A stretch of 52,426 nt of DNA from Candidatus Zambryskibacteria bacterium RIFCSPHIGHO2_01_FULL_46_25 (GCA_001825155.1 MHVH01000004.1:1-52426); one strand, 5' to 3'; counted from the stretch's first letter, positions 8,132-52,426 are shown. Notes: generated from the sequence alone by a model not told the origin. Numbers and translations are program-made.

Positions 8132-9233
8132 AAGAATCCTTATTTTTTCCACATCCTACTTTCCGCTTGTTGGCGGGGCGGAGGTGGCTGTCAAGGAAAT
8201 TACGGACAGATTGCCGGAAATCGAGTTTGACTTGATTACTGCCAGACAGCATAAAAAGTTTGCAAACGTTGAGAAGATTGGAAATGTGACCATATACCGC
8301 CTCGGGTTGGGGAATGTGATTCTGGACAAGCTGTTAGTGCCGTATTGGGGGGCAATAAAGGCTGTTAAATTGAATAGGGATAAGCACTACGCAGCCTTCT
8401 GGTGCATTATGGTTTCTTTTGCATCGGGCGCGGCCTATATAGCCAACTGGTTTCAAAAAAAGGTTCCCGTAGTGTTGACTCTGCAGGAGGGCGATTCGGA
8501 AGAGTGGCTACGATATAGATGGTTGGGACTTATCGATTTGTCATGGCGGCTTGCTCTCCGTCGGACGGCTATTCTTACCGCAATCAGTAATTACTTGCTG
8601 GAGAGAGCGAAAAGGCTTGGCTACACAGGAAAATCCTGTGTAATTCCGAACGGTGTTAATGCCGAGCGATTCTTGAATCCTAAATCCAGAATCCTAAATC
8701 CGGACAATGTCGTTCTCATTACCACCTCCAGATTGGTGGAGAAAAATGGTGTGAGCGACATTATCGAAGCGATGAAGTTTCTGCCGGAGAATTTCAAACT
8801 TCAGATCATCGGCTCCGGACCGCTCGAAAAAAGTTTAAATTTTAAAGTTAAAAGTTTAAAATTGGAAAATAAAATAGAATTTATGGGAGAAGTTCCGCAC
8901 TATGATATATCAAAGTATCTGCATGAGGCAGACATTTTTATCAGACCTTCCTTGTCCGAAGGGCAGGGGATATCTTTCATTGAGGCCATGGCCGCCGGAC
9001 TGCCAGTCATCGCCACTCCTGTCGGCGGCATACCGGATTTTATTAGAGATGGAGAGACGGGGTTATTTGTCGAACCCAAGAATCCTCAGCTCATAGCGTT
9101 TCAGGTACAAAAACTCGTCTCCGATAGAGTACTTCGCGATAAAATCACTATCAATGCCAAGCGCATGGTTATGGAAAAATATGATTGGAATTTGCTCGCC
9201 CGCGAGATGGATAGTAAAGTGTTTAATTTATGA
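8121..9233 (+). CDS. Glycosyltransferase family 4.
   Basis: GT4 C-terminal signature RPSLSEGQGISFIEAMAAGLPVIATPVGGIPDFI. Confidence 0.9.
   Translation: MASKRILIFSTSYFPLVGGAEVAVKEITDRLPEIEFDLITARQHKKFANVEKIGNVTIYRLGLGNVILDKLLVPYWGAIKAVKLNRDKHYAAFWCIMVSFASGAAYIANWFQKKVPVVLTLQEGDSEEWLRYRWLGLIDLSWRLALRRTAILTAISNYLLERAKRLGYTGKSCVIPNGVNAERFLNPKSRILNPDNVVLITTSRLVEKNGVSDIIEAMKFLPENFKLQIIGSGPLEKSLNFKVKSLKLENKIEFMGEVPHYDISKYLHEADIFIRPSLSEGQGISFIEAMAAGLPVIATPVGGIPDFIRDGETGLFVEPKNPQLIAFQVQKLVSDRVLRDKITINAKRMVMEKYDWNLLAREMDSKVFNL
8676..8701 (+). repeat. Heptad-periodic mini-element, AATCCTA type, translated in-frame as LNPKSRILNP.
   Basis: AATCCTA AATCCAG AATCCTA AATCC. Confidence 0.6.
8830..8871 (+). 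repeat. Heptad-periodic mini-element, AAAGTTT type, translated as SLNFKVKSLKLENK.
   Basis: aaagttt aaatttt aaagtta aaagttt aaaattg gaaaata. Confidence 0.55.
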
Positions 9234-10186
9234 AGATTTTAATCGCAACTGGATTGGAAAAATCTGACATAGGCGGGCCTTTTCAATACGCCCACAATCT
9301 CAAGGCGGAGTTTGAAAAACTGGGCAATAAAGTGAAGGTGGCAAAATATGGCTCAATAGAAGGCACTTTTTTGGGTATTTGGCCTCACGCCGTCTGGGCG
9401 GACAAAATTCTCGCGCTTGATACATTCTCGGTCGGGGTGCCGGCGGTTCTTGCCGGGAAATTATTGGGGAAGAAGACGATAGTCCGCGTCGGCGGGGACT
9501 TCCTCTGGTCGGCGTACGTAAACAGGACCGGCGTCTCAATAACTCTGCCGGAATTCTATAAAAGCATGCCGGCGCTTAACACGAAAGAAAAAATCATTTT
9601 TCATCTGTACAGATGGGCAATCAGAAACGCCGGCTTCCTGGCCTTCAATACCGAGTGGCAGAGAAGCATTTGGGAGAAAACATACGATATATCGTATGTT
9701 AAATCGGGAGTCGTAAGAAACTTCATTCCGGCTCGCCATAAAATCGGCGAGTCCGCCAATCCGGATAGCGGAAAGAATTTTTTGTGGGCGGGCAGAGTGA
9801 TTCCGGAGAAGAATCCCGGAATGTTAAGGAGTCTTGGCGTCGATATAGTTACCGGAGAAGCCCACGCAAGAGTTTTGGAGAAGATAAAGAATTCTTATGC
9901 CGTAACCTCCCTTGCCTTTACGGACATCTGCCCTAATTTTGTGATAGAAGGCATCTCTTTCGGTAAGCCCTTTGTTATGACTCGCGAAACCGGCCTTGAT
10001 GAAATCTTCCCGAAGGGCGGAATATTTGTCGACCCTCTGGATGAGAAACAGATTAAAGAAGCGATGCAATCGCTTCGCGATGAAAATACTTATAATAAAT
10101 ATACCGATGGCATAAAGAGTCTTAATTTAAGCCATTCCTGGGCTAGGATGGCGGAAGAATTTCTAAGTATATGGAAAAAGATTTGA
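9230..10186 (+). CDS. Glycosyltransferase-like protein, divergent GT-B/GT4-like.
   Basis: ATGA overlap with the upstream GT4 gene. The C-terminal half has the GT-B-like segment FVIEGISFGKPFVMTRETGLDEIF. Confidence 0.6.
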   Translation: MKILIATGLEKSDIGGPFQYAHNLKAEFEKLGNKVKVAKYGSIEGTFLGIWPHAVWADKILALDTFSVGVPAVLAGKLLGKKTIVRVGGDFLWSAYVNRTGVSITLPEFYKSMPALNTKEKIIFHLYRWAIRNAGFLAFNTEWQRSIWEKTYDISYVKSGVVRNFIPARHKIGESANPDSGKNFLWAGRVIPEKNPGMLRSLGVDIVTGEAHARVLEKIKNSYAVTSLAFTDICPNFVIEGISFGKPFVMTRETGLDEIFPKGGIFVDPLDEKQIKEAMQSLRDENTYNKYTDGIKSLNLSHSWARMAEEFLSIWKKI

Positions 10187-11343
10187 AAATTTTAATGATT
10201 TCAAGTGACCGCAATATCCTTACCCCAGGCAGCGCGGTTTCGGAGCGGATGAAGGAATACGGCGGTCTTGTCGAAGAGTTGCATATTGTCTTGCTTTGCG
10301 ATAGCTCGCACACAAGCTCATTGAAAATTGAAAATGGGAAATTGAAAATTGCCGAAGGCGTATACGTCTATCCGACCAATTCTTCCATGAAGATTTTGCG
10401 TCCCCTCGATGCCGCGAGAATAGGCAAGAGAATTGTTTTGAAGAACAAATTCGTACGCGGAGAATGCGTTGTCACCACCCAGGATCCGTTCGAATGTGGC
10501 TGGGCGGGTTTGAATGTTAAGAAAAAGTGGAGAATTCCTCTTGAAGTTCAGCTTCATACCAATCCATTCTCGCCATATTTTGGTGGATTTCAGAATAGAG
10601 TGCGACAGTTTTTCGCAAGAACGGTTCTTGCGAGCGCCGATAATATCCGCGTAGTGTCTGAAAATTTGAGACACAACATTGAAAATTTATTGAAAATTGA
10701 AAATTCTAAATTGAAAATTTTGCCCATTTATGTGGACAAAGACCAGATTGAGAATGGGCAAATCTCCTTCGACCTCCATGCACGCTATCCGTGGCACTTC
10801 ATACTGCTCGCCGCGTCCCGCATTACACCGGAGAAGAATCTAAGTATGGCGCTTCGCGTTCTTGCCTTGGTGCGGGAGCGGTATCCGAGTACCGGACTTG
10901 TTATCGCTGGCTCTGGTTCAGAAGAAAAAGTTTTGAAATCGCTTGTGGAAAAGCTGGGTCTCGCAGGTTTTGTAGAATTTGTCGGTTGGCAGAGCGAGTT
11001 GGCATCCTTCTATAAGACTGCCAATGCGTTTATCCAGACCAGTTTCTACGAAGGATATGGCTTGGCTCTGGTTGAGGCTGGACTCTCCGGTTTGCCGGTC
11101 GTGACAACACCTGTTGGCATCGCAACTGAGCTTGAGAACGGCAAAGACGCCTACATTTTCCCCCACGATCGTCCGGACATGTTCGCCGCCGGCATTGTAG
11201 ACCTTATAGAGAACAACGAGAAGCGGGAGAATCTAAGAGTGAATCTCAAGCACACTCTCGATGCCAGACTCCTTTCTAAGGAGGATTATATGGCTAAGAT
11301 AAGGGATAATTGGGAAAAGACAGCGCTAAAGATCAAACCATGA
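10171..11343 (+). CDS. Glycosyltransferase family 4.
   Basis: QTSFYEGYGLALVEAGLSGLPVVTTPVG signature. It carries two heptad mini-elements in-frame. Confidence 0.85.
   Translation: MEKDLKILMISSDRNILTPGSAVSERMKEYGGLVEELHIVLLCDSSHTSSLKIENGKLKIAEGVYVYPTNSSMKILRPLDAARIGKRIVLKNKFVRGECVVTTQDPFECGWAGLNVKKKWRIPLEVQLHTNPFSPYFGGFQNRVRQFFARTVLASADNIRVVSENLRHNIENLLKIENSKLKILPIYVDKDQIENGQISFDLHARYPWHFILLAASRITPEKNLSMALRVLALVRERYPSTGLVIAGSGSEEKVLKSLVEKLGLAGFVEFVGWQSELASFYKTANAFIQTSFYEGYGLALVEAGLSGLPVVTTPVGIATELENGKDAYIFPHDRPDMFAAGIVDLIENNEKRENLRVNLKHTLDARLLSKEDYMAKIRDNWEKTALKIKP
10320..10350 (+). repeat. Heptad mini-element, ATTGAAA type variant, translated as KIENGKLKI.
   Basis: ATTGAAA ATTGAAA ATGGGAA ATTGAAA ATT. 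Confidence 0.65.
10678..10721 (+). repeat. Heptad mini-element, ATTGAAA type. The core at 10689-10721 is identical to 12662-12694 and 40211-40243. Translated as KIENSKLKIL.
   Basis: attgaaaattgaaaattctaaattgaaaatttt(g) is identical over 34 nt at three loci. Confidence 0.85.
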
Positions 11344-11448
11344 AGCTTCTCATACTCACTCAGAAAGTGGCTCAACAGGACCCTATTTTGGGTTTTTTCT
11401 ACAAGAATTAAAGATATTTGGGAGGAAACCGCAGGCAAAGTGCGATAA
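11340..11448 (+). pseudogene. Remnants of glycosyltransferase paralogues. One is a 23-codon N-terminal stub resembling the 12486 gene. The other is an 11-codon C-terminal stub resembling the end of the 10171 gene.
   Basis: MKLLILTQKVAQQDPILGFFYKN* (11340-11411) resembles MKLLILTQKVAKNDPILGFFVNW at 12486, with many synonymous differences. DIWEETAGKVR* (11413-11448) resembles DNWEKTALKIKP* at 11308-11343. Confidence 0.6.
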
Positions 11449-11473
11449 TTGAACTTTATATAGTTGCCTAATT

Positions 11474-11502
11474 TTGACTAACTTTATAAAGTTTGATAAT
11501 AT
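11474..11502 (+). promoter_or_regulatory. Sigma70-like promoter upstream of the Fic gene.
   Basis: TTGACT (11474-11479), a 17-nt spacer, then TAATAT (11497-11502). Confidence 0.4.
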
Positions 11503-11533
11503 GATGATGTTGTTGAGCAAGCCGTAATCCAAT

Positions 11534-12466
11534 ATGAATACAAGGCAAAAGTTAGAGATTATTCAAAAAATGTCCGGGCTTACCCAGACCAAGCTGGCAG
11601 AGAGATTCGGCGTGTCTTTCGCCGCTTTTAATAGTTGGTGGACAGGCAGATCAACCCCTCGACCCAGGATGCTTGCTTCTATTGATGAATTTTTTTTAGA
11701 ACTGACTGGCCAGAAAGTTATTCCGGAAGATTATCTGACAGCCAAGAAACAATCTTTGAGTAAAAAATCTTCAGAACTTAAAAAAATTATTGCCGAAATT
11801 CTAGCCAACACGGATATACGCGACCAGTTTATATTGAAACTGACTTATCATAGCAATAGCATAGAGGGCAGTACGCTTACTGAGCCGGACACAGCGGCCA
11901 TTCTTTTCGACAACATCGCTCTACCTGACAAAAGTTTGATTGAGCAACTAGAGGCCAAAAATCACCAAACCGCTCTTAATTATTTGTTCGAGCACCTTTC
12001 TAAGGGGAGAAAGATAGATGAGAATCTGATTTTGAAATTGCATGGTATTTTGATGAACGGCATTCGTCCTGATGCCGGAGTCTATCGCTATCACGGCGTT
12101 AGAATTGTCGGTGTTGATCTGCCGACGGCTAACTATATGAGTATCCCCAAACTGATGTCTGAAGTTGTTTCCATTATATCCGGAAAGACCAAAGATGTGG
12201 TCGCGCTCTCGGCCGAGGTTCACGCTAAATTTGAGCAGATCCACCCCTTTTCTGATGGCAATGGTCGTGTGGGGCGCTTACTCATGAATGCCATGCTTTT
12301 AAAGGCTAATATGCCGCCGGCTATTATTCAGCAAGAGCGAAAACAGCTTTACTATAGTTATCTTTATAAAGCTCAAACCAAGGATGACCGAAGCCAGCTC
12401 GAAGATTATATTTGCGATGCGATTATGGATGGATTCAAAATTTTAGAGCGTAAGGATATTAGATAA
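11534..12466 (+). CDS. Fic family protein with an N-terminal XRE-type HTH.
   Basis: Canonical Fic motif HPFSDGNGRVGR. The N-terminus QKMSGLTQTKLAERFGVSFAAFNSWWTG is HTH-like. Confidence 0.9.
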   Translation: MNTRQKLEIIQKMSGLTQTKLAERFGVSFAAFNSWWTGRSTPRPRMLASIDEFFLELTGQKVIPEDYLTAKKQSLSKKSSELKKIIAEILANTDIRDQFILKLTYHSNSIEGSTLTEPDTAAILFDNIALPDKSLIEQLEAKNHQTALNYLFEHLSKGRKIDENLILKLHGILMNGIRPDAGVYRYHGVRIVGVDLPTANYMSIPKLMSEVVSIISGKTKDVVALSAEVHAKFEQIHPFSDGNGRVGRLLMNAMLLKANMPPAIIQQERKQLYYSYLYKAQTKDDRSQLEDYICDAIMDGFKILERKDIR

Positions 12467-12485
12467 TCATTCAGCCCGTCTCTAT

Positions 12486-13418
12486 ATGAAGTTATTAATA
12501 CTTACCCAAAAAGTGGCTAAGAATGACCCTATTTTAGGGTTTTTCGTAAATTGGATAAAAGCTTTTTCTGAGAAATTTGAAAAAATTACCGTCATCTGTT
12601 TAGAGGCCGGCGAATATGATTTACCAGGGAATGTGAAGGTCCTCTCCCTCGGTGAGGAGAAATTGAAAATTGAAAATTCTAAATTGAAAATTTTGGCGAA
12701 ACTTAAATATGCCTGGAATTTCTACAAATACATATTTAAGTTTCGCCATGATTACGACGCTGTCTTTGTTCATATGAATCAGGAGTATGTGATTCTGGGG
12801 TGGAAATTCTGGAAACTTTGGGGCAAAAAAATTTATTTATGGAGGAACCATGCTCACGGAGATTTTTTTACCAGACTCGCAATTTTGGTTTCGGATAAAG
12901 TTTTCTACACGTCTTCGCAATCTTTTACCGCGAAGTTTGGAAAGGCGGTAAGAATGCCCGCGGGCATTGATACAGACTTTTTCAAACCCGATCCGTCGGT
13001 CGCGAGAATTCCGAATTCGGTATTGTTTCTCGGTCGCATCGCACCGGTGAAAAAAGTTATGGAATTCGTCGAATGGGCTGAAACCAAAGGTTTCAGAAAA
13101 GTAACCATAGCCGGCCCTATCGGTGACAAAGAATATGGAGAGAAGGTTTTAAGCATGCTCACTCCAAACATGACATACGTCGGTCCGGTGACGCAGGCGG
13201 CGGCGCTGAAGCTCTATCAAACCCACGAAACTTATGTCAATATGACCCCTGCCGGCAGTTTTGACAAGACTATTTTAGAAGTCGCCGCCTGCGGGACGCG
13301 GGTTAAGGTTGAGAACAATGATTTGAAATTTATGGAAGGTAAAACGGACGCAGAACTAAGAGATTTTGTTGTGGAGAATCATAGTCTGAAAAAGCTTGCA
13401 GATAAACTTGCAGTATGA
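12486..13418 (+). CDS. Glycosyltransferase, GT-B/GT4-like.
   Basis: The locus context supports it, as does a C-terminal half with GRIAPVKK and a Rossmann-like pattern. It carries the 34-nt heptad element in-frame. Confidence 0.65.
   Translation: MKLLILTQKVAKNDPILGFFVNWIKAFSEKFEKITVICLEAGEYDLPGNVKVLSLGEEKLKIENSKLKILAKLKYAWNFYKYIFKFRHDYDAVFVHMNQEYVILGWKFWKLWGKKIYLWRNHAHGDFFTRLAILVSDKVFYTSSQSFTAKFGKAVRMPAGIDTDFFKPDPSVARIPNSVLFLGRIAPVKKVMEFVEWAETKGFRKVTIAGPIGDKEYGEKVLSMLTPNMTYVGPVTQAAALKLYQTHETYVNMTPAGSFDKTILEVAACGTRVKVENNDLKFMEGKTDAELRDFVVENHSLKKLADKLAV
12662..12694 (+). repeat. Heptad mini-element, ATTGAAA type, identical copy, translated as KIENSKLKIL.
   Basis: Identical to 10689-10721 and 40211-40243. 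Confidence 0.85.
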
Positions 13419-14386: not shown

Positions 14387-14402
14387 ATAGACTGCAAAAA
14401 AG

Positions 14403-17549: not shown

Positions 17550-17554
17550 ATATC

Positions 17555-18619: not shown

Positions 18620-18656
18620 TGTTTACCTTTTAGGCCAAATTCTGTAAAGTACAGGT

Positions 18657-38159: not shown

Positions 38160-40211
38160 ATGATTAAAGATATTTTTAAAAAAACAATATTTGTAGGGCT
38201 GTTTCTGGTGCCCTTCATACCGTTTCTCGTCTTCTCGTCGTTTTTCTTCCCCTATATCACGACCAAGGCGTTTACTTGGAGAATCATTGTTGAGGTGGTA
38301 TTCGCCGCATGGCTTATCCTGGCAGTCTGGGAGCCGGAGTACAGGCCCAAAAAATCCATTCTTCTATACTCAGTGTTTACCTTTCTTGCAGTTATCGGGT
38401 TGGCGGACCTTTTCGGCGTTGATCGCTCCGCGAGCTTCTGGAGCAATTTCGAGCGTATGGAGGGATACATTTCGCTTCTTCATCTTGGCGCGTTCTTCCT
38501 CGTAATCAGTTCGGTCTTCAAAGAGGAACACTGGAAGAGCTGGTGGAATACTTCTCTTGTTGCCTCAGCCATTATGGGTGGCTACGCCTTTATGCAAATT
38601 ATCGGCGCGATGTCGCCTTCGCAGGGAGGGGTGCGCGTCGACGGTACCTTCGGCAACGCCATATATCTCGCGGTCTATATGCTCATACACATTTTCATCG
38701 CGCTCTTCTACATGCTCCGCGGCTGGAAGAATAGAAATCTCAGGTGGACATACGGTATTCTTGTCCTTTTTCAAATATTTATCATCTACTACACCGCGAC
38801 CAGAGGCGCAATTCTCGGCCTTTTGGGTGGACTCTTCATCGTGGCGCTTATAAATGTGATGAATAAGGAAGACACGGCGGTAAGGAAAGCAAGCATGGCC
38901 CTCATCGCGGCAATTGTTGTATTGATTGGAGGTTTTTTCCTCGCCAAGAACACGACCTTCGTATCCCAAAGTCCCGTTCTCTCTCGCTTCTCGACACTTA
39001 CCTTGGCGGAGATAAAGAATCAAGGCCGTTATTATGTTTGGCCGATTGCGCTTGAAGGTTTCAAGGAGAAGCCGATATTGGGCTGGGGGCAGGAGAACTT
39101 CGGTTACGTGTTCCAGAAGCACTACAAGCCGGAAATGTATCGCCTCGAGCCCTGGTTCGACCGCGCGCACAACATCTTTCTCGACTGGGCCGTTGTCGGC
39201 GGTATTCTTGGCCTTCTCTCGTATCTTGGGCTCTACGCGGCATTCTTATACATAGTGTGGCGCAGGGAAGATAATTTTACTTTTTCCGAGAAGTCGGTAC
39301 TTACCGGGCTTTTGGCCGCTTACTTCTTCCACAATTTTTTCGTCTTCGACCATCTTACAAGTTATGTGCTCTTCTTCTCCCTTCTTGCGTATCTTCAGTC
39401 TAGAGTCCCGGGACAGGTTGTATCGGCAAAAATTATTTCGGATTCGAAAATAAAAAAGATTGCTCTTCCGGCCGTGGCGCTTGTTCTGGCGTTCTCCTTG
39501 AGTTACATAAATTTCAAACCTCTGCTTGCCAATGTTTATCTGATAGAAGCGTTGAAGTCTATCCAGCTTAGCGATTCAGCGAAAGCGTCCGGATATTTCG
39601 AGAAAGCATACAAGACATCAAAGCTCGGGCGGCTTGAAGTCATGGAGCATATGGCAAACAACATCTCATCCATATTCTCAGGCAATCTTTCGAGTGAAGA
39701 AAAGGGCGCCTTCTACGCGTTCTCGAGCAATGCCGCGAAGGCGCAAGCCGAATTTTATACGAACTCAGCCCGTACCCAGCTTATGGCCGGCTCATTCTTC
39801 TCCGACATTGGTCTGCCTAACGAGGCGAGGCCGTACTTTGAGCGGGCAAGGGAGCTCTCTCCGGGCAAGCAACAGGCCTACTTCGAGCTCGGGGCCATAA
39901 GGATTAATTTGGGAGACCCGGTTGGGGCACAAGAGTTTTTCAAAGAGGCATATGAGCTGTCGCCGGATTACGTTGAAGCAAGGATAATTTACTTTATTGG
40001 GGCTATATATACTGGCGACAGGGGGCTTGAGAGGGAGCTTGCCGCTCAGATTCCTGAGAAACAGAGAATTTTTGATGACAGAGTCGTCTCGGCGCTATTT
40101 ACCAACAAAAGATTTTCCGAATTGATTGCGTTGTTCGAACGTAGGAAAGAGCTCGACCCGCAAAACTCCGCGACATATGACGATTACATCCGCCAAATCA
40201 GAAGTCAGTAA
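38160..40211 (+). CDS. O-antigen ligase / Wzy_C-family membrane protein with a C-terminal TPR domain.
   Basis: The protein is polytopic. The FDRAHNIFLDWAVVGGILG loop is typical of the Wzy_C family. The C-terminus has TPR-like repeats (YFERARELSPGKQQAYFELG, FFKEAYELSPDY). Confidence 0.8.
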   Translation: MIKDIFKKTIFVGLFLVPFIPFLVFSSFFFPYITTKAFTWRIIVEVVFAAWLILAVWEPEYRPKKSILLYSVFTFLAVIGLADLFGVDRSASFWSNFERMEGYISLLHLGAFFLVISSVFKEEHWKSWWNTSLVASAIMGGYAFMQIIGAMSPSQGGVRVDGTFGNAIYLAVYMLIHIFIALFYMLRGWKNRNLRWTYGILVLFQIFIIYYTATRGAILGLLGGLFIVALINVMNKEDTAVRKASMALIAAIVVLIGGFFLAKNTTFVSQSPVLSRFSTLTLAEIKNQGRYYVWPIALEGFKEKPILGWGQENFGYVFQKHYKPEMYRLEPWFDRAHNIFLDWAVVGGILGLLSYLGLYAAFLYIVWRREDNFTFSEKSVLTGLLAAYFFHNFFVFDHLTSYVLFFSLLAYLQSRVPGQVVSAKIISDSKIKKIALPAVALVLAFSLSYINFKPLLANVYLIEALKSIQLSDSAKASGYFEKAYKTSKLGRLEVMEHMANNISSIFSGNLSSEEKGAFYAFSSNAAKAQAEFYTNSARTQLMAGSFFSDIGLPNEARPYFERARELSPGKQQAYFELGAIRINLGDPVGAQEFFKEAYELSPDYVEARIIYFIGAIYTGDRGLERELAAQIPEKQRIFDDRVVSALFTNKRFSELIALFERRKELDPQNSATYDDYIRQIRSQ

Positions 40212-40243
40212 TTGAAAATTGAAAATTCTAAATTGAAAATTTT
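40211..40243 (+). repeat. Heptad mini-element, ATTGAAA type, identical copy. It is intergenic and abuts the TAA stop of the 38160 gene.
   Basis: Identical to 10689-10721 and 12662-12694. Confidence 0.85.
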
Positions 40244-40410
40244 GCTCCAGTAAGTTATCCACACATTTTTCGTCTTATCTATTGTATACGCGCGCGGTAA
40301 GTACGATAATTAATACAAGCGCAGAAGTTTTTCCATCACGTAGGACGTGACAAGAAAATTTTTGCGACAGATGTTACTAATAATTTTCCGAGGTACCTCG
40401 GAATCACACA

Positions 40411-40482
40411 ATGGCAAAGAAAAAGAAGGCTGCAAAGAAGACTACAAAGAAGCGAAAGGCTTCCAAGAAGAGACGAGCATAG
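40411..40482 (+). CDS. Candidate 23-aa highly basic micro-protein (MAKKKKAAKKTTKKRKASKKRRA).
   Basis: The ORF is below the track threshold. A hairpin followed by a T-run lies at 40506-40529, and the palindrome ccgaggtacctcgg lies just upstream. The SD is weak. Confidence 0.3.
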   Translation: MAKKKKAAKKTTKKRKASKKRRA

Positions 40483-43071: not shown

Positions 43072-43072
43072 C

Positions 43073-43097
43073 CACTTGGAAACTCAGTTTCCAAGTG
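43073..43097. repeat. REP-like 25-nt palindrome, copy 1. It lies between the secA stop and the RAYT start.
   Basis: cacttggaaact c agtttccaagtg. Confidence 0.85.
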
Positions 43098-43110
43098 CTA
43101 TTATTTAAAC

Positions 43111-43776
43111 ATGAGAAAGGTTACATTTCTAGATGGAGAGTACTACCATATTTATAATCGGGGAGTTGATAAGCGTGTAATTTTTAATGATGATAAAGAC
43201 TTTGAGAGATTTCTGGTAAGTATGAATGATTTCAATTCGGTGGAGCCAATTGGGAGTATTTATGAGCACTCATTTCATAAAAAGTCTCGACTTGGAAACT
43301 CAGTTTCCAAGTCAGAGCCTAAATCAACAAAAAAGAAGATTAAGCCGCTGGTTGATTTTGTGGCTTATTGTCTTAATAAGAATCATTTCCATTTTATTGT
43401 TAAACAAGTATCAGATAGAGGTGTAGAGAAGCTAATGCATAGATTGGGACTTGGATTCACAAAGTATTTTAACTTAAGACATGAAAGAACCGGCTCATTG
43501 TTTCAAGGGCCATTTCAAGCTGTACATATTGATTCCAACGAGTATCTACTCTATGTTGGCGCATATGTGAATTTGAATAATTTAATTCACGGATATATAA
43601 ATTCTACAGAATTTAGATCAAGCTGGGGCGAATACACAGGCAGGGGATACGGAGGTTTTTGCAAGGTCGATATAATCTTGGGGCAATACAAAAATAGTGG
43701 CGAATACAAAAAGATTGCCGAACAGACTACGAGGGAGATTAAAAGAAAGCGTGATTTAGATCACTTGGAAACTTAG
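43111..43776 (+). CDS. IS200/IS605-type Y1 (HUH) transposase of the REP-associated (RAYT, COG1943-like) kind.
   Basis: HUH motif NHFHFIV. The segment GSLFQGPFQAVHIDSNEYLLYVGAYVNLN includes the catalytic-Tyr region. The gene is bracketed by the palindromes at 43073 and 43762. Confidence 0.8.
   Translation: MRKVTFLDGEYYHIYNRGVDKRVIFNDDKDFERFLVSMNDFNSVEPIGSIYEHSFHKKSRLGNSVSKSEPKSTKKKIKPLVDFVAYCLNKNHFHFIVKQVSDRGVEKLMHRLGLGFTKYFNLRHERTGSLFQGPFQAVHIDSNEYLLYVGAYVNLNNLIHGYINSTEFRSSWGEYTGRGYGGFCKVDIILGQYKNSGEYKKIAEQTTREIKRKRDLDHLET
43290..43312. repeat. REP-like palindrome, copy 2. It lies inside the RAYT ORF and is translated as LGNSVSK.
   Basis: acttggaaact c agtttccaagt. Confidence 0.8.
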
Positions 43777-43786
43777 TTTCCAAGTG
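43762..43786. repeat. REP-like palindrome, copy 3. Its central T creates the TAG stop of the RAYT gene.
   Basis: cacttggaaact t agtttccaagtg. The stop codon is at 43774-43776. Confidence 0.85.
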
Positions 43787-43826
43787 GGGGATTTTTCAAG
43801 TGTTTTTCTGGTATTATTTAAATTCC

Positions 43827-44399: not shown

Positions 44400-44403
44400 C
44401 AAT

Positions 44404-44778: not shown

Positions 44779-44781
44779 GTC

Positions 44782-46168: not shown

Positions 46169-46184
46169 TCTACGAATTATCCAA

Positions 46185-46568: not shown

Positions 46569-46618
46569 AATTATTTGTAGATATTAGCAGCCAGTAAAAC
46601 CCATAAATTATTAGTAGC

Positions 46619-47590
46619 ATGTTTATAGACGAAATCACTCTCCATCTCAAGGCGGGTCGCGGTGGCGACGGCGTGGTGCGTTGGCGGCACGAGAAAGGCA
46701 AAGACAAGGGCGGTCCATCCGGAGGCAATGGCGGCAAGGGTGGTGATGTGTATGCTATTACCGTAAGAGATATTGGTATTCTGGCGAGCTACAGGAATGT
46801 AAAAGAATTCGAAGCGGGCAGAGGGAATGATGGTTTCAAGGATTTGAAACAAGGCGCCGAGGGCAAGGATGTGGAAATAAAATTTCCTGTCGGTGCTCGC
46901 GTTACGAATCGCACGACAGGCCATTTCATCGAGCTTCTTAAGGATGGAGAAAAAGTTTTGCTTCTCAAGGGCGGCAGGGGAGGTATGGGCAATGAACATT
47001 TTAAAGGCTCTACTAACGTGAGGCCCAGGCAGTCTACGGATGGAGAAATTGGTGAAGAGGCAGATTTCTACACCGAGCTCCTTCTGATGGTCGATTTGGG
47101 CCTTATTGGTCTTCCAAATGCTGGCAAATCAAGCCTGCTTAACGCCCTGACGAATGCTCAGGCCAAGGTGGGCAATTTCCCCTTCACAACCCTTAACCCT
47201 GGTCTAGGAAGCTTCTACGGCCTTGTTCTGGCCGATATCCCAGGGCTCATAGAGGGGGCGGCGGATGGTAAAGGTCTTGGTCATAAGTTCCTGCGGCATA
47301 TCGAGCGCACCAAGGCGCTTCTTCACTGCGTTTCTTCAGAATCAGAAGACCCGCTCGAAGCGTACCGGATTGTGAGAAACGAACTCGGGCTCTATAATAA
47401 AGCCATCACGGGTAAGCCGGAGATAGTCGTGCTGACGAAGACTGATACTGTTTCAGAAGCAGAAGTGAAAGAAAAGATTAAAGCGCTTAAATCAGTTTCC
47501 AAGGATATTGTCCCGATTTCAATTTTGGATGATGAGCTAATTAAAAATTTAAAATTTAGAATTTCCAATTTAAAATTTAATGAAAATTGA
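46619..47590 (+). CDS. obg: GTPase Obg.
   Basis: The N-terminal Obg fold begins MFIDEITLHLKAGRGGDG. The G1 motif is GLPNAGKSS and the G3 motif is DIPGLIEGA. The last ~15 aa are encoded by a heptad mini-element. Confidence 0.95.
   Translation: MFIDEITLHLKAGRGGDGVVRWRHEKGKDKGGPSGGNGGKGGDVYAITVRDIGILASYRNVKEFEAGRGNDGFKDLKQGAEGKDVEIKFPVGARVTNRTTGHFIELLKDGEKVLLLKGGRGGMGNEHFKGSTNVRPRQSTDGEIGEEADFYTELLLMVDLGLIGLPNAGKSSLLNALTNAQAKVGNFPFTTLNPGLGSFYGLVLADIPGLIEGAADGKGLGHKFLRHIERTKALLHCVSSESEDPLEAYRIVRNELGLYNKAITGKPEIVVLTKTDTVSEAEVKEKIKALKSVSKDIVPISILDDELIKNLKFRISNLKFNEN
47492..47504. repeat. Half-REP relic inside obg.
   Basis: tcagtttccaagg matches the right arm of the 25-nt palindrome over 12 nt. 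Confidence 0.4.
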
Positions 47591-47594
47591 AAAT
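47546..47594 (+). repeat. Heptad mini-element, AATTTAA / TGAAAAT type, spanning the obg stop and the gatB start.
   Basis: aatttaa aatttag aatttcc aatttaa aatttaa tgaaaat tgaaaat. The gatB ATG is at 47580 and the obg TGA at 47588. Confidence 0.65.
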
Positions 47595-49022
47595 TATCGA
47601 CTTACCGTAGGATTGGAGATTCACGCGGAATTGAAGACCAGAACCAAGATGTTCTGTCAGTCGAAAAACGATACTGATGAAACGCGCCCCAATGTCAATA
47701 CTTGCCCTGTCTGCATGGGTTATCCCGGTACTCTGCCCGTTATCAATAAAGAAGCTGTAAGGTCGGTTCTGCGCCTTGGAGTAGCCGTAGGCGGCAAAAT
47801 TGCCGACTATACCGAGTTCGACCGCAAAAATTACTTCTACCCCGATATTCCCAAAGGTTACCAGATAAGCCAATATAAGCACCCGCTCGTAAGCGGGGGC
47901 GAGCTTGCCGGAGTAAAACTCACCAGAATCCACTTGGAAGAAGACACAGCGAGATCCTTGCACGAACTTGGAAACTCAGTTTCCAAGTGTCTTTTGGAAA
48001 CTGAGTTTCCAAGTGGGGAGTCTTATCTCGATTTCAACCGAGCAGGGGTTCCACTTATGGAAATGGTAACCGAGCCCGTGATACATACCGCAGAAGAAGC
48101 TGTGAAGTTCGCAAAAGAGCTCAAACTTCTTCTGCAGTATCTGGGCATCTCGCTGGCCAATATGGAGAAGGGCGAGATGAGGGTCGAAGCTAACGTAAGC
48201 GTTAGCTTCGACAAATCACAAAACCCAAACTCCAAATCTCAAACAAATCCTAAACTAGGCACAAAGGTAGAAATAAAAAACCTCAATTCATTCAAGGCCC
48301 TAAGCCAGGCCATAGAATTCGAACACCAGAGGCAGGTAGAGATACTGGAGAGAGGGGAGAGTGTAATCCAAGAAACTCGCGGCTGGGATGAGAACAAATC
48401 CGAGACATTTTCGCAAAGGGCGAAGGAAGAGTCTCATGATTACAGGTATTTCCCCGACCCGGACCTTCCAAAGATTTTCTTAAGCGAAATGCCCGACTTC
48501 GCTCCGACGGAGCTTCGTCGGGCGCTGCCCGAGTTGCCATGGGACAAGAGAGAACGTCTTTTGAAGTTGGGCATCTCATCCGAGCACGCGGAAATTTATG
48601 TTACCCAGCCCGAATGGGGGGAGTATTTTGAAGAGGTATTCAACCACTTGGAAACTGAGTTTCCAAGTGGTGCTCAGCTGGCTTCCAACTACATAACTTC
48701 GGAATTAAAAAAACCGGTGGACGCTGGCGCGTTTGCCGACACCATGCGCATGATTGTTTCCGGGAAAATATCTTCCAGAGGAGCGAAAGAAATTTTGAAA
48801 ACGTTGCAGGAGAAAGGCGGCGAGCCAAGGGCAATCGCCGAGGAGAAAAATTTGATGCAAGAGAGCGACAGAGAGATTTTGAGAAAAATTGTTGAGGAGG
48901 TTTTGGCAGAAAACAAAAAAGCCCCGGTCCAGTTTCTGGTGGGGCAGGCGATGAAGAAGTCGGAAGGCAGGGCGAATCCGGTTATCCTTCAGGAACTATT
49001 CGTCGAGATGCTGAATCGTTAG
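47580..49022 (+). CDS. gatB: Asp/Glu-tRNA amidotransferase subunit B. It contains three REP insertions and one heptad-type insertion, all in-frame.
   Basis: GLEIHAELKTRTKMFC, CPVCMGYPGTLP, LDFNRAGVPLMEMVTEP, EIKNLNSF and a C-terminal YqeY-like tail. Confidence 0.95.
   Translation: MKIENYRLTVGLEIHAELKTRTKMFCQSKNDTDETRPNVNTCPVCMGYPGTLPVINKEAVRSVLRLGVAVGGKIADYTEFDRKNYFYPDIPKGYQISQYKHPLVSGGELAGVKLTRIHLEEDTARSLHELGNSVSKCLLETEFPSGESYLDFNRAGVPLMEMVTEPVIHTAEEAVKFAKELKLLLQYLGISLANMEKGEMRVEANVSVSFDKSQNPNSKSQTNPKLGTKVEIKNLNSFKALSQAIEFEHQRQVEILERGESVIQETRGWDENKSETFSQRAKEESHDYRYFPDPDLPKIFLSEMPDFAPTELRRALPELPWDKRERLLKLGISSEHAEIYVTQPEWGEYFEEVFNHLETEFPSGAQLASNYITSELKKPVDAGAFADTMRMIVSGKISSRGAKEILKTLQEKGGEPRAIAEEKNLMQESDREILRKIVEEVLAENKKAPVQFLVGQAMKKSEGRANPVILQELFVEMLNR
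47966..47989. repeat. REP-like palindrome, copy 4 (centre C), in gatB, translated as LGNSVSK.
   Basis: acttggaaact c agtttccaagtg. Confidence 0.85.
47994..48015. repeat. REP-like palindrome, copy 5 (centre G, opposite orientation). It forms a head-to-head doublet with copy 4 and is translated as LETEFPSG.
   Basis: ttggaaact g agtttccaagtg. Confidence 0.85.
48213..48254 (+). repeat. Heptad-periodic A3-N-CC-type tract in gatB, translated as KSQNPNSKSQTNPK.
   Basis: aaatcac aaaaccc aaactcc aaatctc aaacaaa tcctaaa. Confidence 0.5.
48645..48669. repeat. REP-like palindrome, copy 6 (centre G), in gatB, translated as HLETEFPSG.
   Basis: cacttggaaact g agtttccaagtg. Confidence 0.85.
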
Positions 49023-49235
49023 TTTCTTGATTTGTTTCTTGGCGTTCGATTTGTCCGTGCCGCTTTCAATATCCTCGATAATGTGTTCCAGCGAGGAGAG
49101 CTTATAGACGCGATAGTTGTTCATGGGGTGTCTCTGGGCTCTGAACTTGCCGGATTTATCCCAGTTCCGAAGTGTGAGAGGGGAAACTCCCAGGATCTCA
49201 GCCGCTTCCTTGATGGAGAAATAGATATCTTTCAT
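48996..49235 (-). CDS. Small MerR/excisionase-type HTH DNA-binding protein.
   Basis: FSIKEAAEILGVSPLTLRNWDKSGKF..YRVY pattern. Confidence 0.75.
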   Translation of the reverse strand: MKDIYFSIKEAAEILGVSPLTLRNWDKSGKFRAQRHPMNNYRVYKLSSLEHIIEDIESGTDKSNAKKQIKKLTIQHLDE

Positions 49236-49298
49236 GGTTCGACTCGAAGGGTCATAAACATTACTAATTTAGCATATGTGTTAATATATACAAGTATC

Positions 49299-49817
49299 AT
49301 GAAGCGTAAAATTTTATCAGTATTCATAGTGTCTTTTGTAGCTGCTGTTCTCATTAGGGCTTTTGTTATCGAAGGATTCTTCGTCGTGGGGGATTCCATG
49401 GAGCCGGTCATACATTCCGGAGATTACGTGTTCATCAACAAACTCGCTTTCGCAAAGAGGGAACCTCGACGCGAAGAAATAGTGATAGCCTCTTCTCGAG
49501 GAGGAGAGAGACTCATTAAGAGAATTATAGGATTGCCCGGTGAGCGCGTATCAATAGAAGATGGCAAGATAGTGATTAAGTCCGGTCGCTTGGATGAAGG
49601 AGATGTGTTGGAAGAAATCTATTTAAACAATGGGCAAACTTCGTCTACCACCGGCATTTCTCTCATAAAACTCGATCCGGGAGAATATTTCGCCCTGGGG
49701 GACAATCGGAACGTAAGCATTGATTCTCGGGAGCTTGGTCCGATAGATATATGGGATATAAAGGGAAGTGTCATAGGGTCTTTTAATTTAACGCATTTAA
49801 AGTATAAAGGTTTTTAA
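49299..49817 (+). CDS. lepB: Signal peptidase I.
   Basis: An N-terminal TM helix, the catalytic Ser box GDSMEP, the Lys box IKRIIGLPGE, and GDNRNVSIDSR. The start is set at the ATG at 49299. Confidence 0.9.
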   Translation: MKRKILSVFIVSFVAAVLIRAFVIEGFFVVGDSMEPVIHSGDYVFINKLAFAKREPRREEIVIASSRGGERLIKRIIGLPGERVSIEDGKIVIKSGRLDEGDVLEEIYLNNGQTSSTTGISLIKLDPGEYFALGDNRNVSIDSRELGPIDIWDIKGSVIGSFNLTHLKYKGF

Positions 49818-49867
49818 ATCTTTCTAAGTATAGATTAGTAAGGTTTAGATATGTTTATAGACATATC

Positions 49868-49972
49868 AAATCCTAAATCCTAAGCACTAAATCCTAAATA
49901 ATCTTTAGTTTTCAATTTAATATTTGTAATTTGCAATTTGTTTAGGATTTAGGATTTTTTTATTTAGGATTT
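49868..49972. repeat. Composite intergenic element. AATCCTA-type heptads form an imperfect inverted repeat around a core of ATTTACA/ATTGAAA-type heptads in reverse orientation.
   Basis: The left arm is aaatcctaaatcctaagcactaaatcctaaata (49868-49900). The right arm is tttaggatttaggatttttttatttaggattt (49941-49972). The core is ..ttttcaatttaatatttgtaatttgcaatttg. Confidence 0.65.
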
Positions 49973-50024
49973 GCTCTTCGAATTGTCCACAGAATTCTAT
50001 ATTTTTTTGAATTATTCGAAGAGC
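49973..50024 (+). promoter_or_regulatory. 11-bp inverted repeat directly upstream of the large surface-protein gene. It could be an operator or a 5'-UTR hairpin.
   Basis: gctcttcgaat (49973-49983) pairs with attcgaagagc (50014-50024). The ATG is at 50029. Confidence 0.35.
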
Positions 50025-50028
50025 AAAA

Positions 50029-52426
50029 ATGTATAATAAATACAACGTGAAAGAACAACCGATACAGGATATCGGCACCCCAAAAAACCAGCAAGATGCT
50101 TCCGAAGACGCTGTCAGGTGGCTTTCGATGTCTGAAGCCGCACTCCTCACTCCTTACAGCGCGGAATATCTTTCACTTCTGGCGCGTAAAAAAAAGATTG
50201 CTTCGAAGAAAATCGGCAATGCTTGGTATACGACGAAGGAAGTTCTTGATGCTTACATGAAGCGGCAGATGGCGCGAACTGAGTTGGCAAATGGTGGCGC
50301 GCAATCGGTAAGTGAGATGGTGAAGTCCGCTCTCGAGCCTTGGCATACCTACGGGCAAGATATAAGAAAATATCGTCTTGAGCAGGAGCTTGCGACCGGT
50401 ATGTCGCCGCAAGTTGAGCACGTGGAGCGCGCGCTTGAAAGAGTGTTGGACAAAAAAATTTCCAATTTACAATTTCCAATTTACAATGAAGATTCCAAAT
50501 CAAAATCGGAAAGTAAAATTCGCAAACATTTTAAAATCGCGACTTCGAGCAAGGTGCTCGTCGCGATAACGCTCGCGGCAATTGTGCTCTTCTCGGTCTT
50601 GCCGGTGCCGTTCGTCTTCAGCTTTGTATCGCGCTCCGTTGATTACGTCAAAGAGGCAATCAATGACGCCAATACGGTCATGGGTTTCCGACCCGGCACT
50701 CACGCCAATGAAATTCTACTCCTCGACAAAGAGGGCAATGTTTCGATTATGGGCCATATTGAAACGGAGGGTCAGCTACGGTCATATGTTGCCGATGGCA
50801 TCGCGCCCCTGGTTGTCGACTCTACAACAACGGTAAAAAATCTCTCCGCGGATAGCGTGGACAACATTTCCGCGGAAGAATTCACGCTCGCCTTCGTGAC
50901 CAAGAACGGCAATATGACCACGGAGAACGTTTACTTCGAAGGCAATGTCGAGGTCGGCGAAACTCTAAAGGTCAGAGGGGCAACAGAACTTCTCTCGACG
51001 CTTGAGGTAAGTGGCAAGCTAAAAGCCTTTGGCGAAGCCGAATTCCGGCAAGCGATTGAGGTTCTTGGCCCGGCATACTTCGAAAGCTTGGTGACTCTCG
51101 CGGGCGACGCAAAAATAAAAGGCAACCTTGATGTGAGCAAAAATATTACCGTTCGAGGGAGCGTTGAGTCGAACAGCGCAATTATCGGCAAGAGCGGTTC
51201 CTTCGGCTCTCTCGGCGTTTCCGGCAGTTTCTCGGCCGGCGGCAAGATTACTCTCGGCAACGAGAAAGATACGCTCACTATCAACTCCAAGAACGTTACG
51301 ATTGACAGCTCCGGCAACGCGAGCTTCGACGGCGGTGTGAGCGCCACGAGCCTCTCCGCAACGGACTTGATTGTAACGAACGCCACGACCACAAACTTCT
51401 TCACGGACGTTTTTCGCGCCGCCCTTACCACCATCACCTCCCTTATTGCCGATGATATTACCACCGGAGCGCTTACCGCGACTAATTCCACTTCCACCAA
51501 CGCCACTTCAACCAATTTTTACGCGGAGGATGCCACCATAGACAGTCTTACGACCGCCGAGATAACTATTACCGACCTCCTCTTCACCCGCGCCACAGGC
51601 ACTTCCGCTACGACGACGAATCTGTTCTCGTCGCAATTTACAAGTAACAATTTACAATTTACAAACGGACTCGGGACGTATGCAACTATAACCAACGCAA
51701 CGACCACGAACTTCTTCTCCACTATTGGCCGATTCACGGATTTGTTCTCGGATAACTTCGATGCCAGCAGTTTTACCTTCGTCAACGCCACTGGCACGAA
51801 TGCCACCACAACCAGCTCCTTCGCCGAGACCGCATCTTCAACGAATCTCTTCTCCACCAACTTCAACCTAGGCACAGGTTCTCTCGGTTACGCGACAATA
51901 TCCGACCTCATCTTCACCCGCGCCACCGGCACATCCGCTACCACCACGAGCTTCTTCTCGACTACTGCCTCTTCCACCAATCTCTTCTCCTCACTTCTTT
52001 CTGTCGGCGGCACTCAAGGTTTGAATGTGATTGCCGGCGGGAATGTTGGCATCGGGACGACTGCTCCCACAGGCGCTTTGGATGTATACCCGTCCGGCGG
52101 CGGTTCTGCGACTTTAGGCAATAGTTTATCAGTCTGGGCATTAGGGGGCGGTGCTAATGGCATATATGCCCAACTTGGATTGGGATACAAGGGTACGAAC
52201 GGTGTCCCGCCTGGAGTAATTGCCTGGCAGGCCAATACCAACAATGCTTATCAAGGCGACTTAGTTTTCGCTCTGAGAAATACAGATAGTTATACAGCGG
52301 CTCCCGTCCAAATGATGACCATTAAACCTTCCGGCAACGTCGGCATCGGGACGACGGGGCCGGTATCGGCTTTGCAAGTTAATTCAGAAATATCTGTCGG
52401 AGCAACTGATAATGACCGCGGAATTA
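50029..52426 (+). CDS. Large surface protein, partial because it runs off the window end. Its parts are an N-terminal HTH-like domain, one TM helix, and a Thr/Asn/Ser-rich repeat region with tail-fibre-like GNVGIGTT motifs.
   Basis: I translated this frame by hand from the ATG at 50029 and found no stop up to 52426. It is absent from the ORF track because it has no stop. The N-terminus is WLSMSEAALLTPYSAEYLSLLARKKKI..WYTTKEVL. The TM helix is VLVAITLAAIVLFSVLPVPFVF. The repeats are ATGTSATTTNLFS / ATTTNFFS. The motifs GNVGIGTTAPTGALDV and GNVGIGTTGPVSALQV are also present. Confidence 0.8.
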   Translation, partial: MYNKYNVKEQPIQDIGTPKNQQDASEDAVRWLSMSEAALLTPYSAEYLSLLARKKKIASKKIGNAWYTTKEVLDAYMKRQMARTELANGGAQSVSEMVKSALEPWHTYGQDIRKYRLEQELATGMSPQVEHVERALERVLDKKISNLQFPIYNEDSKSKSESKIRKHFKIATSSKVLVAITLAAIVLFSVLPVPFVFSFVSRSVDYVKEAINDANTVMGFRPGTHANEILLLDKEGNVSIMGHIETEGQLRSYVADGIAPLVVDSTTTVKNLSADSVDNISAEEFTLAFVTKNGNMTTENVYFEGNVEVGETLKVRGATELLSTLEVSGKLKAFGEAEFRQAIEVLGPAYFESLVTLAGDAKIKGNLDVSKNITVRGSVESNSAIIGKSGSFGSLGVSGSFSAGGKITLGNEKDTLTINSKNVTIDSSGNASFDGGVSATSLSATDLIVTNATTTNFFTDVFRAALTTITSLIADDITTGALTATNSTSTNATSTNFYAEDATIDSLTTAEITITDLLFTRATGTSATTTNLFSSQFTSNNLQFTNGLGTYATITNATTTNFFSTIGRFTDLFSDNFDASSFTFVNATGTNATTTSSFAETASSTNLFSTNFNLGTGSLGYATISDLIFTRATGTSATTTSFFSTTASSTNLFSSLLSVGGTQGLNVIAGGNVGIGTTAPTGALDVYPSGGGSATLGNSLSVWALGGGANGIYAQLGLGYKGTNGVPPGVIAWQANTNNAYQGDLVFALRNTDSYTAAPVQMMTIKPSGNVGIGTTGPVSALQVNSEISVGATDNDRGI
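50458..50487 (+). repeat. Heptad mini-element, ATTTCCA/ATTTACA type, translated as ISNLQFPIYN.
   Basis: atttcca atttaca atttcca atttaca at. Confidence 0.6.
51635..51662 (+). repeat. Heptad mini-element, AATTTAC type, translated as QFTSNNLQFT.
   Basis: aatttac aagtaac aatttac aatttac. Confidence 0.6.

Follow-up and report, generated by a model that had tools for sequence, protein, structure and literature searches.

The stretch of DNA analysed here, 52,426 nucleotides (nt) from Candidatus Zambryskibacteria bacterium RIFCSPHIGHO2_01_FULL_46_25 (the window), contains short tracts in which sequence recurs, with interruptions, every seven nucleotides, and which lie within genes for glycosyltransferases, Obg, GatB and a very large surface protein as well as between genes. 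The locus raises the question of how a repeat that is out of register with the codon comes to be written into genes, and whether it arises where it stands or arrives from elsewhere. To the reading that heptanucleotide slippage, followed by selection and occasional copying, is the origin of these tracts we assign a probability of about one half; with the same even confidence we regard them as a local form, unusually dense and mostly within genes, of the excess of 7-nt tandem repeats known in other bacteria. The host, a tiny uncultivated bacterium from groundwater, belongs to the Candidate Phyla Radiation (CPR), within Parcubacteria, and is a near relative of Candidatus Zambryskibacteria. No species representative has a GatB more than 67% identical to its own, and one of its family 4 glycosyltransferases (GT4) is 76% identical to that of Zambryskibacteria RIFCSPLOWO2_02_FULL_51_21. 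Window tracts are given on the plus strand throughout.

To establish the periodicity we scored self-matches of the window at each lag (match +1, mismatch -2; periods 1-24 over 52 kb) and, at a threshold of 12, compared the result with 60 block-wise second-order Markov shuffles. Nine period-7 tracts were retrieved, against a shuffle mean of 0.05 and a maximum of 1; multiples of seven were also enriched (five tracts at period 14, two at period 21), and every other period within 1-24 gave 0 or 1 tract, without enrichment. A preliminary description of the window had proposed that a family of 7-nt-periodic mini-elements is translated in a GT4 gene, obg, gatB and the surface-protein gene, and had named such a shuffle comparison, which strongly favours a real excess. 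Tandem Repeats Finder (TRF) reported 31 arrays, 14 of them of period 7 with 2.1-6.0 copies each: in the GT4 gene at 8676-8701 (AATCCTA) and 8830-8860/8874 (AAAGTTT), at obg/gatB at 47539-47580 (AATTTAA) followed by 47581-47595 (TGAAAAT), in the arms and centre of an inverted-repeat element at 49868-49899, 49922-49941 and 49941-49957, and in the surface-protein gene at 50457-50487 (AATTTAC/AATTTCC) and 51634-51664 (CAATTTA), together with copies of an ATTGAAA type and a CTAGCAC tract (8051-8082) absent from the preliminary list. The tracts thus sit where they had first been placed; translation of the window genes shows that frames stay open through all coding tracts, and ten of the 13 window tracts are translated in frame, so that the family as proposed for these four genes is borne out. 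One type is not: the A/C-rich tract of gatB at 48213-48257, described as A3-N-CC heptads, shows similar identities at lags 6, 7 and 8 (51%, 53% and 49%; shuffle p = 0.05). It has no specific 7-nt period and is probably a decayed AAATCN tract. The glycan-synthesis cluster at 13-38 kb contains no tracts.

The same bias extends beyond the window. In a clade sample of 80 gatB-surrounding loci from other Parcubacteria (1.19 Mb; threshold 11), period 7 accounted for 29 tracts, compared with one to three for each of periods 4, 5, 8, 10, 11 and 13, and periods that are multiples of three gave 13-29 tracts, as coding repeats predict. Across 85 related Parcubacteria loci, period 7 is about ten times commoner than neighbouring periods, so that the bias is clade-wide; at threshold 12 the window carries 172 tracts per Mb versus 14 in the related loci, and is some 12-fold denser. 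Beyond the window genome and one further genome, L017, the tracts are singletons, each with a unit of its own (83 of these 85 loci, L010 having weak possible partners), a pattern that local birth fits better than a spreading element. The clade sample also shows where the tracts accumulate: 22 of 52 lie in the 6% of bases, at most, outside long open reading frames (ORFs), so that their density per base is at least 10-fold higher in non-coding DNA.

Much of the form of the coding tracts follows from arithmetic. Since 7 is not a multiple of 3, an array of heptads runs through all three frames every 21 nt, and within a gene it can change in length only by 21 nt, or three units and seven codons; this is also the source of the 7-residue peptide period that had been proposed (21 nt = 7 codons). 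A unit that contains a stop trinucleotide must then present an in-frame stop in every third unit of a perfect array, and such trinucleotides occur in several of the units (TGA in ATTGAAA; TAA in AAATCCT, AAAGTTT and AAAATTT; TAG in CTAGCAC). In the clade sample, perfect arrays are found in none of 12 coding tracts with stop-containing units, all of which would hold an in-frame stop if perfect, versus nine of 18 with stop-free units (Mann-Whitney p = 3e-4); perfect stop-free coding arrays include (AATTTAC)x4.3 in L092, (AACACCC)x4.5 in L010 and (GGAATCA)x4.3 in L048. The deviating unit of each stop-containing coding tract is located exactly at the would-be stop. Deviating units had been presented as part of a shared architecture; they are no design feature, and in coding tracts they occupy the positions at which a perfect array would terminate translation. 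A scan of metagenomes with the pattern ATTGAAAATTGAAAATNNNAAATTGAAAATT, in which a perfect array has TGA at NNN, gave a corresponding result: none of 121 perfect ATTGAAA arrays is readable on the same strand, where stops occur in all three frames (50 stand in non-coding DNA and 71 face an ORF on the other strand), and in 13 of 13 copies within a same-strand ORF the TGA is altered, mostly by one base (TGT, TTA, TGG, TCA, TCC, GGA). The characteristic architecture is therefore largely explained by reading-frame arithmetic.

Whether the tracts were added to genes or written over them was addressed by comparing orthologous sites, and both insertions and same-length overlays of ancestral sequence occur. 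The clearest insertion is at 10320..10351, in the second GT4 gene (10171-11343), where an ATTGAAA tract with deviant unit ATGGGAA encodes SLKIENGKLKIA and is exactly +21 nt (three units, seven codons) relative to L091-L094; the closest of these, L091, keeps a 10-nt seed, TCATTGAAAATTTCC, and this filled site is equally a tandem expansion from a seed. A second filled site, at 12658..12695 in a glycosyltransferase-like (GT-like) gene (12486-13418), encodes KLKIENSKLKIL; L092 has there a perfect (AATTTAC)x4.3 array, of nearly complementary unit, and the outgroup L094 lacks nine codons (a difference of +27 nt). The third is a GatB loop described below. Overlays include most of the Obg tail, the second tract of the first GT4 gene (8829..8874) and the ATTGAAA tract at 10678..10722 in the gene at 10171-11343, which has the deviant unit ATTCTAA and encodes LLKIENSKLKIL. 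No orthologue differs in the length of this last segment. In L091 it is likewise a tract and carries that deviant unit, in L092 it is an AAATCTT tract, and in L093 and L094 it is ordinary sequence (KIDSKKVTVLP in L094). The 8829 segment (AAAGTTT/AAATTTT by TRF and scan, encoding KSLNFKVKSLKLENKI) is of equal length in about 70 homologues and maps codon by codon onto a canonical helix, LEKxLKxKxKxLKLExRVEF; the window and L092 show periodicity here, the closer L091 does not. For several tracts the name mini-elements claims too much. On the orthologue comparison that had been named as a possible refutation, the answer is mixed: positions are often ancestral, but the periodic sequence itself is not conserved.

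The GatB loop (ANISVSK..LGTK, window 48195-48266) illustrates how permissive a site can be. The 48213 tract encodes KSQNPNSKSQTNPKL, of A/C-rich low complexity, in a surface loop. Compared with solved structures of GatB it is an insertion, as it is when compared with the GatB proteins of 62 of 81 Parcubacteria, whose loop has 5-7 residues; the other 19 carry unrelated inserts of 10-35 residues. These comprise five heptad tracts, about six hairpin palindromes and also 21-nt repeats (listed inserts: L001, L002, L010, L014, L016, L017, L022, L028, L036, L044, L046, L070 and L072). The nearest relatives of insert-bearing genomes are usually short-looped, and the GatB loops of L072 and L080, at 93% identity, differ by 16 codons. 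In the window, L014 and L028, which are not mutual nearest relatives, the loop carries an insert of 15 codons that begins alike and has a common 3' part; those of L014 and L028 are clear heptad tracts.

Some tracts are closely similar to one another. AATTGAAAATTGAAAATTCTAAATTGAAAATTTTG occurs in three copies, identical over 35 nt and with unrelated flanks, in the 10678, 12658 and 40207 tracts. The segment 47544-47578 at obg/gatB is 86% reverse-complementary to the ATTGAAA copy at 12660, its deviant unit TTAGAAT included, and 50454-50487 in the surface-protein gene is 88% identical to 47543-47576. The preliminary description had listed four further types; these are not independent, and several AT-rich types are the ATTGAAA unit on the opposite strand and not separate families. 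The copy at 40207..40253 is non-coding: it lies directly past the stop of a Wzy_C/TPR protein gene (38160-40211), whose frame it continues, and a second TAA comes after it. That it retains the stop-removing deviant unit TCT while untranslated implies that it derives from, or formerly was, a coding version. CAGTAA direct repeats stand on either side of the 42-nt block 40212-40253, and the block 40206-40253 could be the footprint of an insertion at a stop codon or that of a recent truncation of a tract-encoded tail. Finally, a deviant unit, AAGCAC, is common to the gatB tract of L028 and the intergenic tract of the window at 49868.

Variation within the population bears on another possibility, that the tracts are contingency loci at which 7-nt slippage steps toggle genes for surface glycans and surface proteins. 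A 7-nt unit does shift the frame, many tracts lie in genes of these two kinds, and heptanucleotide phase-variable loci are known in Haemophilus (PMC2651432). We compared 19 assemblies of this population, which stem from different samples and projects and are 98.8-100% identical to the window, in its intervals 3-16 kb and 36-52 kb. Among about 195 single-nucleotide polymorphisms (SNPs) and 13 indels, none was in any heptad tract or palindrome at the consensus level, so that length or phase variation, for which a check had been proposed, was not found in these assemblies; unit and length do differ between species, as at the orthologous glycosyltransferase sites. All arrays are, moreover, short and interrupted, and gatB and obg carry them too. 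With no tract variation among the 19 assemblies we rejected phase variation, and hold contingency loci to be a very remote prospect; assembly artefact was rejected too, because 19 independent assemblies agree.

We infer that short arrays would be made and homogenised from short seeds by a mutational process that works in a 7-nt register, replication slippage or realignment being the likeliest. Selection would retain those that are harmless, whether in spacers between genes or in linkers, loops, ends and surface helices of proteins. Arrays in genes are shaped by the 21-nt length step and by a mutated third unit where the unit holds TAA, TAG or TGA; from these two constraints follows the recurrent pattern of unit, unit, deviant, unit, part-unit. 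Frame-compatible versions would now and then be copied elsewhere, for which ectopic templated repair or gene conversion could serve, whereas interrupted tracts are stable. The copying step is added because independent slippage cannot yield identical 35-mers with a deviant unit; it would explain the three copies that share one deviant unit, of which one is non-coding.

Several observations weigh against slippage, selection and copying as the whole account. The three identical copies, with a deviant unit that differs at two bases, lie beyond what independent slippage would give, and the shared 15-codon inserts of three GatB loops recur despite non-sister lineages. The AAATC seed is present in none of the 62 short GatB loops, and four non-sister lineages carry AAATC-type tracts there. 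An essential gene cannot traverse intermediates of +7 or +14 nt. Tract lengths cluster at 30-34 nt with no geometric fall-off, which may in part be a detection effect, and long non-coding tracts are also imperfect, so that stop avoidance does not explain every deviant unit. The common AAGCAC deviant, and tracts of L017 that are inverted around a 23S_rRNA_IVP gene, are likewise awkward, and contemporary slippage was not seen in the 19 assemblies. Public collections scanned for (AAATCC+N)x3 across periods gave at least 120 matches each at periods 7 and 8 (genome_contigs) and at 7 and 10 (viral_contigs), with 59 at period 8 in viral_contigs; these scans yield no comparison between periods, and we draw no pan-bacterial conclusion from them.

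It is because the shared copies, the GatB inserts, the AAGCAC deviant and the L017 tracts misfit simple slippage that we keep as main rival a very small mobile or copy-and-paste element, of about 30-45 nt, that an enzyme or templated insertion would write into permissive sites and whose periodicity would come from the element or template. It would resemble the small dispersed repeats of Nostoc, or Rickettsia palindromic elements at reduced size. The identical 35-nt copies with unrelated flanks, one just past a stop codon between CAGTAA repeats, are what such an element would leave, as are the same AAATC insert in GatB loops whose nearest relatives are short and seed-free, and the inverted, near-identical tracts that in L017 flank both the 23S_rRNA_IVP gene and a 3.4-kb segment; a dispersed family of 25-nt palindromes, moreover, uses the same kinds of sites. 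Most tracts in the 85 related loci nevertheless occur once, each with a unit of its own; at 10320 a resident seed has expanded cleanly, by +21 nt; and several tracts replace ancestral sequence with length unchanged. Single tracts lack terminal inverted repeats and a consistent target duplication (only the CAGTAA repeats resemble one), and no transposase, reverse transcriptase or RAYT-like gene was found within the 52-kb window. We therefore consider such an element unlikely, and are just as doubtful of its broader form, in which a dedicated copy-and-paste or templated-insertion process of Parcubacteria would write both 30-45 nt heptad tracts and 25-nt palindromes into permissive loops and termini, those of gatB and obg included.

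Tracts at gene boundaries raise yet another possibility, that they are functional nucleic-acid signals: protein-binding sites, or RNA structures for termination, processing or translational coupling. A role of this kind was proposed for the TAACTGA repeats of other bacteria (PMC4679880). Tracts stand before the start of the first GT4 gene (8051), after the Wzy stop (40210), at obg/gatB (47539) and, in L017, directly before the gatB ATG, and tract density is much higher in non-coding DNA. An intergenic composite of three tracts lies at 49867..49973, 57 nt upstream of the surface-protein gene (from 50029); its left arm is AAATCCT AAATCCT AAGCACT AAATCCT, its right arm the inverted copy and its centre a run of TTNNAAT units (reverse ATTGAAA-like), and the whole folds as a long hairpin (-31.6 kcal/mol, z = -5.1). 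A scan for promoters and terminators around this element gave nothing useful. Against a signal, the unit varies from genome to genome, orthologous sites included; both the 10320 tract and the periodicity at the second GT4 tract are missing from the sister species L091; many tracts lie deep within ORFs at unrelated positions; and no common flanking motif was seen. We judge the proposal improbable.

The obg/gatB boundary itself had been taken as a junction built by a tract. The tract at 47539..47595, consisting of AATTTAA, AATTTAG and AATTTCC units (opposite-strand ATTGAAA) and then two plus-strand ATTGAAA-type units, does hold both signals: it encodes the Obg tail LIKNLKFRISNLKFNEN and its stop, TGA at 47588-47590, which is the array's own in-frame TGA, and the start of GatB, MKIEN, from an ATG at 47580-47582, 8 nt upstream of that stop (Obg gene, 46619-47590; GatB gene, 47580-49022). 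Relatives have an Obg tail of about the same length (LIKNFKKWIIN before the stop in L001), and obg and gatB overlap in them without a tract; the tract thus did not create the junction and was accommodated in a pre-existing one, for which it now supplies stop and start.

The amphipathic peptides encoded by some tracts admit a further explanation, by which the periodicity is a by-product of selection on the protein for amphipathic heptad helices of Lys, Leu and Ile that are encoded by AT-rich codons. The second GT4 tract and the Obg tail do encode amphipathic helices with a Leu-Lys pattern every seven residues. A 7-residue period, however, requires only a 21-nt period and not one of 7 nt; copies are identical as DNA, without synonymous differences, intergenic and opposite-strand copies exist, and other tracts encode loops of Pro, Ser and Asn. 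Tract composition also departs from that of the host genes: AT-rich tracts have a GC content of 0.10-0.22 inside genes of 0.43-0.51 (0.11 for the 8829 tract, versus 0.46 in the remainder of its gene), and lysine codons AAA and AAG stand at 23:1 within tracts as against 115:105 outside, from which we conclude that the AT-rich tracts are not ordinary coding sequence. Selection for heptad helices, rejected on the intergenic and DNA-identical copies, has next to no likelihood in our estimate. Nor does structure point one way, since the association with protein surface loops that had been put forward for checking is mixed. In an AlphaFold model of the first GT4 protein (mean confidence, pLDDT, 91.8) the tract at 8675 is predicted to be interdomain-linker coil and the block of lowest pLDDT, a flexible linker, whereas the 8829 tract is predicted to comprise helix 236-245, then a loop and the first part of a strand, and is a regular helix of the Rossmann fold.

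Comparison with known repeats places the tracts most readily among bacterial heptanucleotide arrays. Heptameric simple sequence repeats (SSRs) are over-represented in many bacteria, according to PMC4692102 (citing Mrazek 2007), which gives as examples the short tandemly repeated repetitive (STRR) sequences of Calothrix and Nostoc, GGGGA(T/C)T in Nostoc and GGGAATC in Xanthomonas, inverted pairs included (citing also Mazel 1990), and relays the hypothesis that the preference for 7 nt is tied to the DNA segment held by the polymerase, through slippage of its footprint. In the features set out there, the window tracts resemble these SSRs as tandem 7-nt units in few copies, with several unit families per genome, a period-7 excess over neighbouring periods and occasional convergent, inverted, hairpin-capable pairs; mechanism and function are there left without explanation, with polymerase slippage proposed (PMC4692102). 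The SSRs so described are G-rich, mainly intergenic and variable in length between related strains (PMC4692102), whereas the window tracts are mostly AT-rich or A/C-rich, largely translated, interrupted, strain-invariant and in a CPR host. TAACTGA heptamers form direct repeats in Beggiatoaceae, Cyanobacteria and Bacteroidetes, where many of them stand right before start codons, and share with our tracts short arrays (2-6 copies there), occasional location in ORFs, occurrence in distant phyla and the lack of a known mechanism (PMC4679880). In that system one conserved unit dominates and a regulatory role is proposed; the window clade has many units, even at orthologous sites. The contingency SSRs of Haemophilus influenzae (PMC2651432) are likewise built on a unit that is not a multiple of three and occur in genes for surface structures, as do tracts of the window, but are long, perfect and polymorphic where ours are short, interrupted and monomorphic.

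Dispersed in-frame repeats offer a different comparison. Rickettsia palindromic elements (about 100-150 nt, palindromic) and the small dispersed repeats of Nostoc (21-27 nt, mostly intergenic) resemble the tracts as short, dispersed repeats that lie in frame at permissive surface positions and encode no transposase. The heptad tracts differ from both in being tandem and not palindromic, mostly unique to their site, and sometimes replacing sequence rather than inserting into it. A literature search for heptamer repeats of CPR bacteria or Patescibacteria found nothing relevant, and as far as the searched literature shows, the translated period-7 tracts are a mostly coding form of bacterial heptanucleotide repeats not previously described in the CPR.

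These results extend to very small genomes a bias known since 1990 and 2007 and still without explanation, and show that its products are tolerated and translated within essential genes. A simple arithmetic rule (7 versus 3, a 21-nt step, one stop-removing deviant per three units) predicts the architecture, and lets annotators flag such segments as insertions or overlays that derive from repeats, where a conserved protein motif might otherwise be assumed. Tracts are also markers of permissive loops, such as that of GatB, in which 19 of 81 Parcubacteria carry independent inserts. If the copying step were proven to be an active mechanism, it would define a new class of very small genetic element; a dedicated insertion process, if true, would involve elements a third to a quarter the size of any in-frame mobile element known to us, and would mean ongoing remodelling of protein surfaces and gene junctions in minimal genomes.

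The remaining tracts of the window are these. At 8051..8084 a CTAGCAC tract (CTAGCAC CTAGCAC CAAGCCC CTAGAAC CTAGAA) encodes LAPSTKPLEPRI in the C-terminal linker of a VirD4/TraG-like ATPase (6530-8131, by Pfam); its third unit abolishes an in-frame TAG, and orthologues have at this site a variable linker of similar length. At 8675..8701 an AATCCTA/AAATCCN tract, to which TRF assigns period 14 at 100% as well as period 7, encodes LNPKSRILNP in the linker between the two Rossmann domains of the first GT4 protein (8121-9233); its deviant unit CCAGAAT abolishes an in-frame TAA. L091, in which the protein is 76% identical, has an orthologous tract there, and L092 a hairpin palindrome of the same length. 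In the surface-protein gene, an AATTTCC/AATTTAC tract at 50457..50487 (14-nt period at 100% by TRF), whose unit contains no stop trinucleotide, encodes KISNLQFPIYN immediately before a membrane-spanning helix, and a CAATTTA tract with deviant unit CAAGTAA at 51634..51664 encodes QFTSNNLQFTN. The predicted tract-encoded peptides also include KLKIENSKLKI and KSQNPNSKSQTNPK.

Heptad tracts of related unit were met outside the clade as well. Public matches to (AAATCCG)n and (AAATCCA)n, mostly of 4-5 units, include, among those listed, Verrucomicrobiota, Acidobacteriota, Chloroflexota, Cyanobacteria and Planctomycetota; in low-GC genomes such tracts are often within long ORFs and encode peptides of NPKSEIRNPK or NPKSKIQNPK type. 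ORF calls around AAATCCR tracts of other phyla are unreliable in GC-rich genomes and were not used. In L017, another Paceibacterota genome, a 23S_rRNA_IVP gene (PF05635) at 8446-8893 lies between obg and gatB and is flanked by inverted heptad tracts, and a second pair of near-identical inverted tracts (76-135 and 3558-3603) brackets a 3.4-kb segment of three genes. That this second pair might form rRNA processing stems was rejected, as Rfam found no rRNA and the interval consists of three ORFs.

A second, palindromic mini-element is dispersed through the window. The 25-nt perfect palindrome CACTTGGAAACT(C/G)AGTTTCCAAGTG has six copies (43071-43097, 43288-43313, 43762-43787, 47965-47989, 47991-48016 and 48644-48670) where 0 are expected. 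Within gatB, three copies lie in frame and encode the peptide ETEFPSG. The two neighbouring copies at 47965-48016 form an insertion present in none of 80 other Parcubacteria GatB proteins.

Other features of the window were noted in passing. A 60-70 nt segment at 11340-11400, just upstream of a Fic/DOC gene (11534-12466), is a 78% identical copy of the 5' end of the GT-like gene at 12486-13418, and L092 has no Fic gene between the two glycosyltransferase genes; the arrangement suggests that the Fic gene was inserted with a partial target duplication. The idea that the 12660 tract is the edge of this duplicated fragment was rejected, since similarity ends after about 70 nt. Positions 1-379 are the 3' third of a 16S rRNA gene, with a LAGLIDADG_2 homing-endonuclease ORF (973-1731) some 600 nt downstream that holds a 26-nt inverted repeat (1030-1055 and 1649-1674, 96% complementary). 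Single assemblies of the population carry gene disruptions: a 1-nt deletion in L090 splits gatB (window 47748), a 16-nt deletion in L085 splits the Wzy_C gene (39727-39742), and in L344 the glycosyltransferase gene at 10171 is split at about window 10990. All of them lie outside the tracts, and they reflect either errors of assembly or alleles in the minority. A tiny Lys/Arg-rich ORF at 40413-40482 (MAKKKKAAKKTTKKRKASKKRRA), situated between the Wzy_C gene and secA, contains a 12-nt repeat by TRF, and an ORF that resembles it is found also in the divergent strain L086.

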